A stretch of 64,000 nt of DNA, taken from IMG/VR virus record IMGVR_UViG_3300020477_001475, positions 32,001-96,000 of that record, one strand, 5' to 3'. The first letter of the stretch is position 1. Every line of letters begins with the position of its first letter. Below are positions 52,553-58,109 of the stretch, piece by piece. The notes below the pieces were generated by a model. The model worked only from the letters and a program-made list of their open reading frames with translations. It was not told the origin of the DNA and did not search any database. The position numbers and the translations under genes are program-made. This DNA is from a virus.

Positions 52553-52832
52553 TTTTGCCTACCATTCTATGATATGGTTTTTTATAATAATGTGAAATAA
52601 ATGTACTAATTTCTTCCATATCTAATTTTCTTCTTAAATTATTTTCTAATCTTGTATATGGACAATCTAATCTGTTTAAAGCTAAATGCATTATCCACGC
52701 TGATAGTGGTAATGCTATCCAAATAGGTTCATTGATAAATAATAAAGGAACACTTAATGTTATAACCCAAAGCCCAATATGATGTGTAACTACGGTAAAT
52801 ACAAACAATAATCTATAAAATGTTCTATTCAT
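52545..52832 (-). CDS. Small membrane protein (DUF2784-like)
   Basis: Two hydrophobic helices then CPYTRLENNLR...FISHY. Confidence 0.65.
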   Translation of the reverse strand: MNRTFYRLLFVFTVVTHHIGLWVITLSVPLLFINEPIWIALPLSAWIMHLALNRLDCPYTRLENNLRRKLDMEEISTFISHYYKKPYHRMVGKNE

Positions 52833-53502
52833 CTTTCTCCTTTGGGTAAGGTAATATTTTATATTTTAAATTTTTCATCATATCCTTTTTTTCCTTTTTA
52901 TTTCCCATTAAATACAAATATCTATATTTTCCATGTAATTTTTTAATTTCGTATTGAACTCCCATTTTTTTCAATTTATCTTTACTACGAGTACCATACC
53001 TTTGATTCATAGTTCTGGGATGTACTTTTTTACCATCAATAATATACCAAGTATCTTCAGTACTAGTTCCACAATACAACCAATTGGTTGCTTGATATAT
53101 TTTTCCAAAATGACCTTGTTCTGGATCGGCAAAAGATACTAATATCTTTATATCAGGATGATTTTTCTTTATATATTTTATACTTTGACCTATACAATAA
53201 CTTTCCATATTCTTACCAGCCCAATCAAAACTAAACAACCTAACTAATTCCCAATATTTTCCAGGAAGACTATCTTTCATAGTTGACGATGCACTTTGAC
53301 CATAAACTAAAACTGCATTCAATTTCTTTTCTACATAAAATCCCAAACATAATTCAGATGCTGGAAATGCATGACTATAATGATTTTTAATTATTATACT
53401 TTTAGCTAAATTGGATGGTATTCGTTCCATTTCAATATTATTCTTATCTAAAGTATCCATTTCTACTTCTGATGTAGGATCACCATCCCAGAAATTATTC
53501 AT
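52825..53502 (-). CDS. mom: Mom-like GNAT-fold DNA (adenine) modification enzyme
   Basis: NHYS, LGFY, ELVRLF, KNMESYCI, LVSFADPEQGHFGKIYQATNWLYCG, KYRY: matches the Mu Mom family pattern. Confidence 0.75.
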   Translation of the reverse strand: MNNFWDGDPTSEVEMDTLDKNNIEMERIPSNLAKSIIIKNHYSHAFPASELCLGFYVEKKLNAVLVYGQSASSTMKDSLPGKYWELVRLFSFDWAGKNMESYCIGQSIKYIKKNHPDIKILVSFADPEQGHFGKIYQATNWLYCGTSTEDTWYIIDGKKVHPRTMNQRYGTRSKDKLKKMGVQYEIKKLHGKYRYLYLMGNKKEKKDMMKNLKYKILPYPKEKDE

Positions 53503-53513
53503 AATTTTAATCT

Positions 53514-54272
53514 CTATAAAATATTAGAATTATTGTCAACAACAACTTTTTTTATTTTCAATTCATTATTACCAGTATTTTTAGGATAATCCATAGACGG
53601 ATGTTTTAAAGATTTTATAAATTTTTTCTTTTCTTTTTTTGTACCTAAAAAATAAACATATCTGTGTTTACGTGGATCTTCTTTCAACCAAAATGTATGT
53701 CCTATCTTGTCTTTCAACTTTTCCATGTTATTAGTACCATACATAGCAAAAATAGTTCTGGAATGTATCCAATCACCATCCTCTTCCAACCTTAATAACC
53801 AAGAATCACAATATCTAATTTTATCCCCTTGATATACCCAATTAGTTGCTTGATAAATACCACCCAAATGACCTTCTTTAGGATCTGCATAAGATAATAA
53901 AGCTTTAATGGATTTATCATTTGTTTTTAACCATTCAAAAGTCCTACTAATAAAAGATGATTCTATATTTTTACCATAACCATCATGAATAAATAACCGT
54001 GTTAATTCTAATACATTCTTATTTTCCAATTCACTGGAAATAGATTGTGCAGCCAACCTACCAACAGGATAACCATAAACAGCAACACCAATTAGTTTTT
54101 CTTCCTTTTCATCAAAAAATGCATGATCATTACCAGTTTCATAAAAAAGACCCAATGCATAACGACAACTTGTCCACGCATGAGAATAATGATATTTTTC
54201 AATCATTTTTTTACCTATATTTTTAGGTATAGATTTAACCTTTAATTTTTTTATATCTACATATTTTTCCAT
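53514..54272 (-). CDS. mom: Mom-like GNAT-fold DNA (adenine) modification enzyme, second paralogue
   Basis: YHYS, LGLF, ELTRLF, KNIESSFI, LLSYADPKEGHLGGIYQATNWVYQG, KHRY. Confidence 0.75.
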   Translation of the reverse strand: MEKYVDIKKLKVKSIPKNIGKKMIEKYHYSHAWTSCRYALGLFYETGNDHAFFDEKEEKLIGVAVYGYPVGRLAAQSISSELENKNVLELTRLFIHDGYGKNIESSFISRTFEWLKTNDKSIKALLSYADPKEGHLGGIYQATNWVYQGDKIRYCDSWLLRLEEDGDWIHSRTIFAMYGTNNMEKLKDKIGHTFWLKEDPRKHRYVYFLGTKKEKKKFIKSLKHPSMDYPKNTGNNELKIKKVVVDNNSNIL

Positions 54273-54317: not shown

Positions 54318-54465
54318 CTGGAGCCGTAGGAGTCGAACCTACACGAAGAAGTTAGCCTTAGTTCAAGTGTGCACCTAAGTAGTGGTCAACCCATTAAACC
54401 ATGTTTATCCTTTTATCTTCACCCCCGAGACAAGAGGGCGTGTCTGCCAATTCCACCAGACTCCA
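54318..54465 (-). tRNA. Aberrant 148-nt tRNA-Asp(GUC)-like RNA with a 79-nt variable region
   Basis: Acceptor TGGAGTC/GGCTCCA + G73; D arm GTG-GAATTGGCAGA-CAC; anticodon arm CCCTC-TTGTCTC-GGGGG; T arm GTAGG-TTCGACT-CCTAC; CCA not encoded. Confidence 0.75.
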
Positions 54466-54471
54466 ATGTTA

Positions 54472-54972
54472 TTATTTATCTAATAACCAAGATGATGATT
54501 GTATTTTGTCACCACCTATTCCCCAAATCATTTCTACACCTAAATCCTGGCAAACCTGCATTTCAGGTACATTATCTGATGTTCTATCCCCACCGTTAGC
54601 AAAAAACAATTTATATTCTTTTTCACCGGTTGGGTTTGAATCTAAATAATCATAGTTAAATCCTTGACCACTATAAATGGTTCTAACTTGTTTGATTAAA
54701 CTACAAGCCGTATCATCTTTATCATCAAAGGCTAACACTTGGTTGACATATTTAAAACCTTCAAGTATTTCTTTTCTTTCTTTGAAATCCATAAATGGTT
54801 TTTCTTTTTTACGAGTTAACCAATCATCTGAATTTAATCCCACTATAACTTGATGTCCTAACCAACTTGCTTCTCTAAACATTCTTAAATGACCTTTATG
54901 TACAGGATCAAATCCACCACTCATTATGATGACGGATTTTCTCCAGTCTTTATTCCATGTCGTTTGTTTCAC
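54472..54972 (-). CDS. HxGH cytidylyl/adenylyltransferase (TagD/RfaE-II-like)
   Basis: SGGFDPVHKGH, VGLNSD, ANGGDR, KIQSSS. Confidence 0.88.
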   Translation of the reverse strand: MKQTTWNKDWRKSVIIMSGGFDPVHKGHLRMFREASWLGHQVIVGLNSDDWLTRKKEKPFMDFKERKEILEGFKYVNQVLAFDDKDDTACSLIKQVRTIYSGQGFNYDYLDSNPTGEKEYKLFFANGGDRTSDNVPEMQVCQDLGVEMIWGIGGDKIQSSSWLLDK

Positions 54973-55796
54973 TTAGTTAACCCCGACATTTCCATAGCTC
55001 TTACCATTCTCGTTACACCAATTCCACCACCGAATCTAGGGAAGAAATCGTGTGATAAGTATTCTTCTAATTCTTTTTCAACTCTTTCTTTTGTGAAATG
55101 GTTGTAAAGTAATTGAGCATACTCACCGTCTGAAATTGAATGGAAGTTTTCTCTCATTTCATCAACATTAACTGCTCTTTCAGCTGAACCAATTGTTTCT
55201 TGACCATGCATGATAACATCAATCTTATTGTAAAGATTTTTGTCATCATCATTTTGTTTCATGTTCCAGAATGGATGTGTTCTATGTGGAAAATGTGATA
55301 AAAATGTACAAGTACCTAATTCTTTACTCATAGCTTCTTCTTCTGCATAATCTAATTCATCAACACTATATTTTTCACATGCTTCATCATATTTGATTTT
55401 ACCATGTTCAGAACCAAAACCTAAAAACTCTAATAATTCTTCTTCCATTTCTTCTAATTTGTCCATACCACCGTGAGACTCAAACTCGAACATTGGGAAT
55501 AATTTCTCATGACGACCTTCAACAGGATTTGGTTCATTTCTATAACTCGTTGATACACAAAATACACCTTTTACTGTTGGATTCTTTAATAATTCATATT
55601 CAAGCCACATTTGTCCAGTCTGCGGTAACGGCCAGTTTACACCATTAAACACATATTGTGATATGGTTTTTGGATCTTCACAAGCCGCTAATATAGACCT
55701 TCTTGATTGTGTTGGAACTTCTATAAATCCCTTTGCTTCTCTAAAGTATTGTCTCATTTTATAAACTGCTGCATCAAATGCGAACATATCTTTCAT
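54969..55796 (-). CDS. Class IIb aminoacyl-tRNA synthetase catalytic domain only (AsnRS/AspRS-like; possible asparagine synthetase)
   Basis: Motif 1 GFIEVPT, motif 2 SYRNE...RHEKLFPMFEFE, ETIGSAER, motif 3 GGGIGVTR; 275 aa, no anticodon-binding OB domain. Confidence 0.82.
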   Translation of the reverse strand: MKDMFAFDAAVYKMRQYFREAKGFIEVPTQSRRSILAACEDPKTISQYVFNGVNWPLPQTGQMWLEYELLKNPTVKGVFCVSTSYRNEPNPVEGRHEKLFPMFEFESHGGMDKLEEMEEELLEFLGFGSEHGKIKYDEACEKYSVDELDYAEEEAMSKELGTCTFLSHFPHRTHPFWNMKQNDDDKNLYNKIDVIMHGQETIGSAERAVNVDEMRENFHSISDGEYAQLLYNHFTKERVEKELEEYLSHDFFPRFGGGIGVTRMVRAMEMSGLTK

Positions 55797-55807: not shown

Positions 55808-56275
55808 TTAACATCCTATATAAAATATAATCAAACCTAAAACACATACACCCCAATCAAATACATTTGAACGAGGTAAACTTATGTTCATCATTTTCCA
55901 TGGTGCTTTACTTGCGAAAGGATCATCAAGACACACATAATTCAATGCTCTTTCATATACAAAATAACCAACCATCCAACTACCTAACCAAATAAATAAT
56001 AAATCGTAAAAACTAGTTCCAGCCCACATACCAAGTGTATATGCTGATAAGATACAACCTACAGTACCTATATTTTCACCTAATCTCCAAGCATGATAAT
56101 CAAGAATACCTACCCCACTAGGTTTACCCTTTTTACTAATACTACCAAATATTAATTTATTTGATTTTCTTTGTTTTGCATTTGCCCATGTATATCCTTC
56201 AGTACACCCTTCACTAAACCAATATACAACCATAAAAAATAAAAAACATAATTCTAATAACATATTAATCTCCAC
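55808..56275 (-). CDS. Membrane hypothetical protein
   Basis: About four hydrophobic segments. Confidence 0.6.
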   Translation of the reverse strand: MEINMLLELCFLFFMVVYWFSEGCTEGYTWANAKQRKSNKLIFGSISKKGKPSGVGILDYHAWRLGENIGTVGCILSAYTLGMWAGTSFYDLLFIWLGSWMVGYFVYERALNYVCLDDPFASKAPWKMMNISLPRSNVFDWGVCVLGLIIFYIGC

Positions 56276-57260
56276 ATATTGTTTCTGTTAATTTAAAACA
56301 AACCTTATAAGGATCACAATTAGCAGAAGGTCTTCTATCTTCAAGATAACCTTTACCATCTTTTGCTACTTGCCAAGGAACTCTAACTGATGCTCCTCTA
56401 TCCGAAACTCCCCAATGAAATCTATTAATTGGACAAGTTTCATGCAATCCAGTGAGTCGTCTTTCATTACCATGACCATAAACACCAATATGTTCTTGAT
56501 GTTTATTTTCTAATTTCTGTATAGCTTCATGTATAACTTTATCACCACCATCTTCTCTCATAGCCTTTGTTGAGAAGTTTGTATGAGCACCAGCACCATT
56601 CCAATCACCTTCAACAGGTTTTGGGTCAAGTGATACTTCTATATCGTTTTTAGCACAAACCTTTTCCAATATCCAACGAGCAACCCAAATATCATCTGAT
56701 ATTACTATTGGGTCATCGGCACCAATCTGATACTCCCATTGTCCAAGCATAACTTCTGAATTAATACCACTAATCTTGATACCAGCTTTAATACAATAAT
56801 CCATATGTCTGCGAGCAATCCAATCGCCTTTATTTCTACCACAATAGTAATCACCTTGTGGTGCAGGCTCACCTTCTATTGGCCATCCCAATGGTCTACC
56901 ATTTTCATACAAAGTATATTCTTGCTCTATACCAACCCATACATCTTGCTCTCTATGTGTTTGGTATAACTCTTCCAATTCAAACCTATGATTAGTCGGA
57001 TGTGGATGGTCATGGACATCCCAAACTTCACATAATACCAAAAATGAATCGTGTTTTTCCATAGGATTTTCATATAATCTAACAGGTTTTAAAACACAAT
57101 CAGAGTTAGCTCCTTCAGCTTGATTTGTTGATGAACCATCAAACCCCCATACAGGACAATCAGTTATACTCCTACCAAATTCTTCTACAATTTTTGTTTT
57201 ACTACGCAATTGACTTGTTGGTTCAGTTCCATCAATCCATATGTATTCTAATTTAGTCAT
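56265..57260 (-). CDS. glnII: Glutamine synthetase type II
   Basis: EYIWIDG, LRSKT, WGFDGSST.QA, GINSEVMLGQWEYQIG, DWNGAGAHTNFST, RLTGLHET, GYLEDRRP. Confidence 0.95.
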   Translation of the reverse strand: MTKLEYIWIDGTEPTSQLRSKTKIVEEFGRSITDCPVWGFDGSSTNQAEGANSDCVLKPVRLYENPMEKHDSFLVLCEVWDVHDHPHPTNHRFELEELYQTHREQDVWVGIEQEYTLYENGRPLGWPIEGEPAPQGDYYCGRNKGDWIARRHMDYCIKAGIKISGINSEVMLGQWEYQIGADDPIVISDDIWVARWILEKVCAKNDIEVSLDPKPVEGDWNGAGAHTNFSTKAMREDGGDKVIHEAIQKLENKHQEHIGVYGHGNERRLTGLHETCPINRFHWGVSDRGASVRVPWQVAKDGKGYLEDRRPSANCDPYKVCFKLTETICGD

Positions 57261-57261
57261 A

Positions 57262-57684
57262 TTATTTCCCCCAAACTTTTTCTTTCACTAATTGTGCTAT
57301 TATAGCGTAATTTGCTAAGTCCATAAAGGTATCCATTAATGATTCATTTTCAGGTTCTTGATTGTTTATAACAATTTGTTGAAATCTTTGCATCTTATCA
57401 TTCATTCTGAACCATAATCCTGTAAGTGCTAATTTAACTTCTTCTTCTGTTTCAAGGTTACTTCCAACTGATATATTTTTTGGACCATAATCTTTTTGTT
57501 TTTTACAGAATAATTCCCATTGATTAAATTGGATGTCTTGAAACATTTTTGTTGTATCTGGATATTTTTCTTCTATAAAATTTATAGGGTTAGTGTCATC
57601 CCATCCCATATTATTATTCATTATAACACCATTTAATGAACTTTTTTTAGAAGCTTCTTTTATAACTTTAATTTTACTTTTCAT
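57262..57684 (-). CDS. DUF1599 / nucleotide-modification-associated domain protein
   Basis: KQKDYG, RMNDKMQR, ESLMDTFMDLANYAII. Confidence 0.8.
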   Translation of the reverse strand: MKSKIKVIKEASKKSSLNGVIMNNNMGWDDTNPINFIEEKYPDTTKMFQDIQFNQWELFCKKQKDYGPKNISVGSNLETEEEVKLALTGLWFRMNDKMQRFQQIVINNQEPENESLMDTFMDLANYAIIAQLVKEKVWGK

Positions 57685-58109
57685 TTTTTACCCTTCAATA
57701 GTTTTTTAATTTGTTTTGGTTCCTTACCATATATTTCTAATAACGATTTTAATTGATTTTTATCCAAAATATCCACATATTCAACACATTCTTTTTTACT
57801 GACTTCGTAATATTTGCAAACTATATCCACCAATTCTACATCATATTTCACTTGTTTTTTTCCTTTAATATACCTATTGAAACGTTTTCCTTTAGGAAGG
57901 ATATCACGATACCATTTATAAGTATCCTTTGGTTCCAATAATCCAATAGAATATTTTTGAAAAAAATTGACTATTTCAATAAATTCTCTATCCATAGACA
58001 GCCATCTATTTATAATAAAAGGATTAAATGTTTTTTGATCTGATTCCGAAAAATCATTCCAATCTTTTTTATGAACCAACAACTGGTTCACCCAATCTAC
58101 AATCGTCAT
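57681..58109 (-). CDS. Clamp loader small subunit (T4 gp62-like)
   Basis: FNPFIINRWLSM...K.KRF..YIK...YYEVS pattern; near clamp and clamp-loader ATPase. Confidence 0.7.
   Translation of the reverse strand: MTIVDWVNQLLVHKKDWNDFSESDQKTFNPFIINRWLSMDREFIEIVNFFQKYSIGLLEPKDTYKWYRDILPKGKRFNRYIKGKKQVKYDVELVDIVCKYYEVSKKECVEYVDILDKNQLKSLLEIYGKEPKQIKKLLKGKK

Follow-up and report, generated by a model that had tools for sequence, protein, structure and literature searches.

The mining of metagenomes brought to light allo-tRNAs in both bacteria and phages (Mukai et al. 2017, PMC5389517), and the Mom protein of phage Mu moves the glycine of Gly-tRNA-Gly to adenine N6 in DNA (PMC13219725)—a source that also cites the tRNA-Gly of Staphylococcus peptidoglycan as another off-ribosome tRNA. 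In cyanophage P-SSM7 a 'tRNA ligase' and 'tRNA-Asn' pair is annotated (PSSM7_129/130), of which the cyanophage genome paper lists the gene only (T4-GC 194, PMC3037559). Here we describe a 148-nucleotide (nt) tRNA-like RNA encoded on the minus strand of a 64,000-nt stretch of DNA from a marine phage (positions 32,001 to 96,000 of IMG/VR record IMGVR_UViG_3300020477_001475; hereafter the window), together with the family of giant-armed RNAs to which it belongs. Judged by comparison with its relatives, the RNA is a genuine RNA gene under selection, and the members of the family are chimeric tRNA-like RNAs—an Asn/Asp-type acceptor end and anticodon loop on a Leu-type class II body, with a pyrimidine at position 37. 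The family is matched by no Rfam 15 model and has no description in the literature searched.

The RNA and its arms lie as follows (bp, base pairs):

54318..54465, minus strand: the whole tRNA-like RNA, 148 nt, with its 5' end at 54465 and G73 at 54318; CCA is not encoded
54459..54465 with 54319-54325, minus strand: acceptor stem UGGAGUC/GGCUCCA, with U1-A72 and G2-C71; G73 is next
54440..54456, minus strand: D arm GUG-GAAUUGGCAGA-CAC, with a 3-bp stem, Leu-type class II
54422..54438, minus strand: anticodon arm CCCUC-UUGUCUC-GGGGG, with GUC at 54429-54431 (G34 U35 C36), then U37 and C38
54343..54421, minus strand: 79-nt variable domain, closed by GAAG/CUUC
54326..54342, minus strand: T arm GUAGG-UUCGACU-CCUAC, with a normal T loop and covariation in relatives

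The cloverleaf of a canonical tRNA is present—a 7-bp acceptor stem, D and anticodon arms, a 5-bp T arm and a 7-nt anticodon loop with U33—but position 37 is U and not a purine, and the variable region has 79 nt where canonical tRNAs have 4-5 or ~13-21 nt. In decoding tRNAs a purine occupies position 37; the identity set read by aspartyl-tRNA synthetase (AspRS) in E. coli tRNA-Asp consists of G34, U35, C36, C38, G73 and G10. An earlier sequence-only reading of this DNA had listed the arms, U1-A72, GUC, C38, G73, the Leu-type D arm, the pyrimidine at 37 and the 79-nt insert, and all of them are present in the sequence. The 5' end of the RNA lies 6 nt past the stop of the open reading frame (ORF) at 54472-54972, and its 3' end 45 nt ahead of the next ORF (Mom1, described below) on the same strand; promoter-like sites near the RNA are no more frequent than in shuffles, and no terminator-like site was found flanking it. 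By blastn the 5' part of the RNA matches phage tRNA-Leu genes; against cultured phages nothing homologous over the full length of the RNA was found, the likeness to tRNA-Leu being confined to that 5' part.

The single-sequence fold of the RNA is not unusually stable against shuffles (z = -1.2) and the standard detectors are silent, so the case depends on comparison with relatives. Across 13 sequences the cloverleaf and the base of the variable arm keep 97.8% standard pairs, against 80.0% in shuffled sets and 43-55% when the partners are slid; none of 500 shuffles matches the observed value, and 19 of the 28 pairs, which include those of variable-domain helices P1a and P1b, are altered on both sides. 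All seven pairs of the acceptor stem are kept in relatives, five of them with changes on both sides. For the variable domain, RNAalifold was applied to 32 representatives less than 93% identical and gave three helices, P1a, P1b and P2, whose 14 pairs are 97.5% standard (shuffled mean 72.8%, maximum 76.8%), with mostly three to five pair types at each pair position. Three marine contigs carry an RNA nearly identical to that of the window (L382, L383 and L387; loci are given by our own L numbers), and there too the differences are pair-preserving. Because relatives keep all helices with covariation, the RNA is not a product of chance; the covarying helices likewise bear out the earlier suggestion that the variable domain is conserved and structured.

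Within the variable domain the comparison of relatives gives these elements:

54417-54420 with 54345-54348, minus strand: P1a, 4 bp, then a 4-nt bulge AUAA, from the alignment of 32 representatives
54410-54412 with 54349-54351, minus strand: P1b, 3 bp, from the same alignment
54403-54409, minus strand: 5' joiner GAUAAAC, conserved between helices
54395-54401 with 54359-54366, minus strand: P2, 7 bp, UGGUUUA with UUGAACUA, from the comparative fold
54382..54392, minus strand: the 11-mer GGGUUGACCAC, nearly invariant and apparently unpaired, at the distal end of P2
54367..54381, minus strand: P3 region UACUUAGGUGCACAC, variable, a short hairpin in relatives and weak in the window copy
54352-54358, minus strand: 3' joiner AGGCUAA, conserved, with the family form GCUAA(C)

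The window RNA has the full layout of the giant-armed family: P1a, bulge, P1b, GAUAAAC, P2, GGGUUGACCAC, P3 and GCUAAC. The GAAG/CTTC stem that the sequence-only reading had proposed to close the insert is correct; of its two inner hairpins, CTTAG...CTAAG and TGGT...ACCA, the complementary stretches are there, but the conserved fold is made of P1a, P1b and P2 instead. In the closest relatives a G66A change breaks UGGU/ACCA and improves P2. Our scans selected for the GGGUUGACCAC motif, and its invariance was judged on relatives found by other patterns, among which it deviates only in L099/L102 (GGGAUUG) and L103 (GGGGUAG); in the comparison of relatives no steady pairing partner for it was found.

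Several side observations concern the same domain. The 11-mer includes GAC, which is complementary to the GUC anticodon of the RNA itself, and sits at the tip of a ~15-bp arm formed by P1 and P2; since every member from the scan that left the anticodon free has GUC, self-pairing with GGGUUGACCAC would lie beyond the reach of covariation. The loops of P3 are often self-complementary (UGCA, UUAA or GUAC in L361, L368, L386, L422, L229, L099 and Pedobacter loci), and such tetraloops could allow loop-loop dimerisation. Extra hairpins occur in the D loop at L103 1955-2126 and L402 1607-1760 (both minus strand) and in the P1 bulge of the 195-nt RNA at L406 1313-1507 (minus strand), which suggests that the scaffold takes modular insertions.

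Standard searches do not recognise the RNA. ARAGORN without introns reports nothing at the RNA or across the window; Rfam at gathering thresholds gives no match to it, RF00005 included, and at E<=10 on 281 nt returns chance-level matches only (snoZ101, osmY and the T arm of transfer-messenger RNA, tmRNA). The tmRNA match covers the T arm alone, with 17 nt and 5.5 bits, so that the comparison with tRNA, YrlA/Y RNA and tmRNA models proposed in the sequence-only reading recognises no family beyond that bare arm. A genome search with RF00005 leaves the window copy below threshold; other long family members score 36-41 bits with this model. The likeness to Y RNAs and Ro60 drawn earlier is unsupported—no YrlA or Y RNA model in Rfam matches, and relatives do not conserve the bulged helix that had been proposed. 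The same reading was right, however, that the insert lies off the 37/38 site and is too short for a group I intron: its place is the variable arm, and Rfam gives no matching family of introns or ribozymes. Several candidate identities were rejected on these and similar grounds. A group I or other self-splicing insert does not agree with the length (79 nt against more than ~200 nt), the variable-arm site or the lack of a family match. ARAGORN in intron mode offers a tRNA-Leu(taa) with a 68-nt intron, a parse that puts the intron within the anticodon, requires a stem with a mismatch and breaks up the GUC hairpin kept by every relative. A minigene of the form SD-AUG-GUU-UAA (SD, Shine-Dalgarno) was dropped because its AUG reads AUA in L382, L383 and L387, and a tmRNA because the RNA has no conserved tag frame, frames and lengths (147, 148, 152 and 162 nt) varying across the family. 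Homology to T4 rnaC/rnaD was discarded since our covariance model of the family, R1, finds no match.

Relatives are numerous. A pattern made of the D arm and the GUC loop gave 23 further viral loci and a second pattern gave more; the genome scan used the D-arm/GUC pattern, and the metagenome scan the variable-domain motif with the anticodon unconstrained. The result is a set of ~170 different relatives; viral contigs account for 26 distinct sequences, metagenomes for 57 and Sphingobacteriaceae chromosomes for 93. Every family member from the metagenome scan has the GUC anticodon, even though that scan did not constrain it. The anticodon loop reads Y-U-G-U-C-U-C/A in all GUC members found, with U37 throughout, and the Asn/Asp-type features extend across members: a weak 1-72 pair, G2-C71, G73 and a loop of the form Y-U-G-U-C/U-U-C/A. 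The window RNA carries the family hallmarks, namely the Leu-type D arm, U1-A72 (rarely A1-U72 in the family), G2-C71 and G73. Viral GUC members measure 93-162 nt, with U37 and mostly C38, and several share the variable-domain motifs of the window. R1 was built from 25 sequences; it scores the window RNA, itself in the training set, at 98.9 bits and detects long members in nine of the 121 Bacteroidota genomes that were sampled. A further pattern, GATAAAC-N-TTGACCAC, gave mostly chance matches in viral contigs and one new member.

Family carriers comprise Bacteroidota chromosomes and many marine and freshwater phages. Bacterial counterparts, which the sequence-only reading had suspected, occur in Sphingobacteriaceae and other Bacteroidota; at four Pedobacter loci ARAGORN was run on the family RNAs and reports no tRNA. 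All RNA-containing matches of the genome scan belong to Sphingobacteriaceae (Pedobacter, Pelobium, Hufsiella, Daejeonella and related metagenome-assembled genomes), and 62 of 87 loci there hold a ~110-nt copy beside a ~142-nt copy. The bacterial copies have housekeeping surroundings (feoAB, an Lrp/AsnC-type regulator, a LacI-type regulator, frr, pyrH) and are divergent from a regulator at L481 4565-5561 (Pedobacter zeae) and 81 other Sphingobacteriaceae loci. In phages, conserved protein neighbours of the RNA were not found, except for a class IIb synthetase core in a minority of loci; Pfam and PHROGs searches on recurrent phage neighbours returned replication genes and unknowns only. A complete 34-kb phage genome (G011) has a 106-nt member (L354 2643-2748) as its sole tRNA-like gene, placed just after replication-initiator and DnaB-like helicase genes. 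In a complete 136-kb phage genome (L353) a 153-nt member is accompanied by a separate 112-nt RF00005 match (G001:C1:77650-77761, minus strand), an ARAGORN-negative RNA with a terminal CCA and, around its anticodon region, a large insertion.

Carriers of the RNA may also keep ordinary decoding tRNAs. A complete tRNA set is present in Pedobacter zeae, tRNA-Asn and a canonical tRNA-Asp (G1-C72, loop CUGUCAC) among them, and phage contig L101 has normal Asp and Asn tRNAs beside the long RNA; in both carriers the tRNA-Asp has A37. In the phage record of the window, of 30% GC, no other tRNA was found. That a canonical tRNA-Asp is kept alongside and that U37 is conserved indicate that the RNA differs from a routine tRNA-Asp, and the earlier view of it as a non-routine decoder is probably right.

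In the window the RNA closes a gene cassette, whose members and flanks are the following (aa, amino acids):

57681-58109, minus strand: clamp-loader-like gene, the upstream flank of the cassette
57262-57684, minus strand: ORF between the clamp-loader-like gene and GlnII
56265..57260, minus strand: type II glutamine synthetase GlnII (NF041605, 459.9 bits, just below the 500-bit cutoff)
between GlnII and the class IIb core, minus strand: 155-aa protein, placed by gene order
54969..55796, minus strand: class IIb aminoacyl-tRNA synthetase catalytic core, 275 aa (PF00152, 8.3e-17), with no anticodon-binding domain
54472..54972, minus strand: HIGH-type nucleotidyltransferase (PF01467), between the core and the RNA in the window
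53514-54272 and 52825-53502, minus strand: the paralogues Mom1 and Mom2 (PF25680, 1e-49 and 2e-50), directly downstream of the RNA

The order is GlnII, small protein, class IIb core, nucleotidyltransferase and RNA, then Mom, Mom and a PD-(D/E)XK nuclease; in L382, L383 and L387 it is swapped to core, RNA, nucleotidyltransferase. Motif 2 (FCVSTSYRNEP...GRHEKLFPMFEFE) and motif 3 (GGGIGVTR) of the core are intact, its nearest solved relatives are asparaginyl-tRNA synthetases (AsnRS), and at least 596 relatives occur in viral contigs. Just downstream of the core gene, 14 of the 80 core-gene loci kept have a tRNA-Asn(GUU) of 74-97 nt called by ARAGORN, or a similar unassigned tRNA, and 11 of these 14 RNAs have the D arm of the window RNA, a long variable hairpin and the loop CUGUUUA (U37). 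GUC RNAs fill the same slot in L085, L382, L383, L387 and the window. As in cassettes of the P-SSM7 type, the window has a class-II-bodied U37 tRNA-like gene downstream of the core on the same strand, with one gene between; the GUU and A38 of that type are, however, replaced by GUC and C38 in the window and L085. The recurrence of GUU or GUC RNAs in this slot upholds the link with the synthetase-like gene that had been claimed from the window alone. The core has the same invariant residues beside a GUU-type RNA, a GUC-type RNA, a standard tRNA-Asn or no RNA at all, and no specificity switch was found between GUU- and GUC-linked copies; the enzyme, unchanged across RNA types, does not follow the anticodon. 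GlnII also adjoins the core gene in L012 and L027.

The two Mom genes are another matter. The window has two diverged tandem paralogues, whereas the four closest Mom-relative loci (Mom 54-62% identical) have one, in the order clamp-loader-like gene, Mom, nuclease, with no cassette and no tRNA; the same flanks without the cassette indicate that the cassette is an insertion beside Mom. No tRNA-like gene or core was found in any of 15 Mom-relative loci, no Mom within 4 kb of the core gene in 80 core-gene loci, and no Mom in 20 other RNA-carrying records, and Mom as a general partner was rejected on these synteny and co-occurrence tests. Mom follows the RNA-nucleotidyltransferase pair also in L383 and L387. 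The tie to Mom, RtcB or TROVE genes that the earlier reading had thought worth checking is unsupported, co-occurrence with Mom being restricted to the phage lineage of the window, and the two are probably neighbours, not partners.

Taken together, the mix of traits and the upkeep of the RNA beside a normal tRNA-Asp point to an aminoacyl-tRNA-like job outside routine decoding. The reading we favour, tentatively and with a little less than an even chance, is that of a processed, aminoacylatable tRNA-like carrier that acts off the ribosome, its variable domain serving for docking or shielding. Host tRNA-processing enzymes would excise the RNA from a minus-strand operon transcript; it would then receive CCA and be aminoacylated on G73-CCA, either by the anticodon-blind core of the cassette or by host AspRS, whose identity set the RNA keeps. 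Once charged, it would act apart from the ribosome, as a decoy or as an aminoacyl carrier, and would not be a routine decoder; the variable domain would offer a platform for docking or shielding. Nothing was found that points to removal of the 79-nt domain. Several facts weigh against this picture. The GUC RNA does not need the enzyme: of 20 other RNA-carrying records 19 lack the core gene, and four of these are genomes of at least 96% completeness. Most enzyme loci have no RNA within 4 kb. Alternatively, the core could make asparagine without a tRNA, like the archaeal AS-AR synthetases; metabolism or a recombination hot spot would then account for its adjacency to the RNA. Several phages hold the family RNA inside ordinary tRNA arrays, which fits a translational role, and translation is reported to be able to tolerate extended variable arms (PMC7590224). 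A rather unlikely alternative is a working, if unusual, decoder—a phage tRNA-Asp for GAY codons, charged by host AspRS, whose odd U37 loop and body would escape tRNA nucleases or regulation. The retained identity set, the intact acceptor and T arms, the RF00005 scores of other long members and the place in phage tRNA arrays all agree with it, as does an anticodon loop that shifts with position 36 (GUU with A38, GUC mostly with C38). Against the decoder stand the conserved pyrimidine 37, the canonical tRNA-Asp kept alongside in L101 and Pedobacter, the GUU or GUC found in the same slot by an unchanged enzyme, and the lack of an obvious codon-usage gain from a lone Asp tRNA in a phage of 30% GC.

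Asparagine chemistry offers another route, one we regard as doubtful. An acceptor end with U1-A72 and G73 is the tRNA-Asn-type end recognised by the amidotransferase GatCAB; AspRS would load Asp on the RNA, U1-A72 would admit an amidotransferase (GatCAB, or the AsnA/AsnRS-like core with GlnII giving the amide nitrogen), and Asn would be released or used outside translation. The acceptor end itself and the joining of GlnII to an Asn/Asp-type core in the cassette favour this, as do a divergent Lrp/AsnC-family regulator within 600 nt of the RNA at 82/87 Sphingobacteriaceae and 23/54 metagenome loci (the latter including regulators only 47-63% identical) and the presence of GatB in 9/9 RNA-positive genomes. 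GatB, however, is also found in 101 of the 121 sampled Bacteroidota genomes, Lrp/AsnC proteins are broad amino-acid regulators and not specific to asparagine, and most RNA-carrying phages have neither the core nor GlnII. RNA-positive genomes have AsnRS (9/9) and AsnB (8/9), so no pathway gap is filled; AsnA is missing in RNA-positive and RNA-negative Bacteroidota genomes alike, and across sampled Bacteroidota gene content there is no signal of asparagine-pathway complementarity with the RNA. The asparagine idea gains no strength from this gene-content test. A private aminoacyl donor for the two downstream Mom paralogues, giving an adenine modification unlike the glycine-derived one of Mu, is very improbable: Mu Mom does use Gly-tRNA-Gly (PMC13219725), and the RNA lies 45 nt before Mom1 on the same strand, with the adjacency again in L383 and L387, but this recurrence is within one lineage, where simple inheritance would be possible, and the counts of 0/15, 0/80 and 0/20 given above are against it. 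A broader proposal in which the core would charge a private RNA that feeds a transferase without the ribosome (here Mom, with an aspartate/asparagine (Asx)-derived group on adenine), or in which the GAC of GGGUUGACCAC would mask the RNA's own GUC anticodon, is highly speculative; if true, the pairing of GGGUUGACCAC with the anticodon would hide the latter from ribosome and nucleases. We give hardly any credence to a decaying pseudogene or to a spliced insert of 79 nt (or 68 nt, as in the tRNA-Leu(UAA) of ARAGORN). The silence of standard detectors and the intron-mode parse would suit it, but in bacteria and phages alike the insert has covarying helices and conserved joiners, the parse destroys the GUC hairpin, and the insert is too short for a group I intron; the sequence-only reading had named a lack of conserved insert structure in homologues as its own refutation, and the helices prove to be conserved, as they would not be in a pseudogene. 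Just as implausible is a Y-RNA/YrlA-like tether for Ro60 or a tmRNA-like minigene carrier: UUGACCA resembles the 3' strand of the Ro60-binding helix of Y RNAs, yet no YrlA, Y RNA or tmRNA match exists save the T arm, the UGGU strand is not conserved, the AUG is AUA in L382, L383 and L387, and frames and lengths vary.

The RNA was also set against known systems. Among bacterial class II tRNAs, tRNA-Leu (RF00005) in particular shares the body of the RNA—a 7/5 branch, a 3-bp D stem, a D loop of the GGAAUUGG(C/U)AGAC type, a T loop of normal form and, from positions 44-48, a long variable arm; in contrast, the window RNA has G73 and not A73, a GUC loop, pyrimidine 37 and a 79-nt multi-helix domain in place of ~13-21 nt. 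Allo-tRNAs are likewise natural RNAs of unusual architecture with long variable arms, whose anticodon need not fit the body (PMC5389517); they have, however, 8/4 or 9/3 branches and a Ser/Sec-type origin, whereas the window RNA has a 7/5 branch, a Leu-type D arm and a far larger domain. The off-ribosome tRNAs exemplified by Gly-tRNA-Gly for Mu Mom (PMC13219725) share the idea of an aminoacyl donor and of specialised isoacceptors beside a decoding tRNA, but they are of ordinary size and use a housekeeping synthetase, and the link of the window RNA to Mom failed the co-occurrence tests. With the tRNA-Asn that serves the indirect pathway through a non-discriminating AspRS and GatCAB, the RNA has in common U1-A72, G73 and neighbours related to Asn, Asp or amide nitrogen (the class IIb core and GlnII), and bacterial copies adjoin an Lrp/AsnC-type regulator; the window RNA differs in having GUC and not GUU, and the genomes that carry the family have AsnRS and AsnB as counted above. 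YrlA (PMC4201824) and the T4 species 1/2 RNAs (rnaC, rnaD) are also stable non-coding tRNA-like RNAs of bacteria and phages, the T4 pair lying in a tRNA cluster with no function assigned in the T4 record; the ends of YrlA, however, form the Ro60-binding stem and it has no anticodon arm, while the ends of the window RNA form an acceptor stem.

The cyanophages have an enzyme of the same family as the core, with 54-57% identity, and R1 finds a tRNA-like RNA directly after the ligase gene of P-SSM2 (PSSM2_198) as well; both cyanophage RNAs have the Leu-type body, U37, G73, a weak 1-72 pair and the same slot. They differ in their 85-97 nt, GUU with A38 and a simple variable hairpin, where the window RNA has GUC with C38 and a 79-nt module of the Bacteroidota type. 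In the P-SSM2 record (NC_006883.2) the annotated tRNA-Asn (164094-164179) lies within a coding sequence, while R1 places the RNA at L336 3266-3351 (~162083-162168), and the annotation looks misplaced. The family as a whole has been overlooked by standard detectors, although tRNAs are among the best-catalogued genes, and it combines traits that are usually exclusive—Asp/Asn identity, a Leu body, pyrimidine 37 and a covarying variable-arm domain of 65-120 nt. A class IIb core without an anticodon reader is a candidate charging enzyme for the giant-armed RNA; if this is true, the two would be a natural orthogonal synthetase/tRNA pair, of relevance to phage-host conflict, tRNA biology and genetic-code engineering. 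What has been annotated before is the GUU sibling alone, as 'tRNA-Asn' in P-SSM7 and P-SSM2; what is new is that a giant-armed GUC RNA occupies the tRNA slot of an AsnRS-like cassette.

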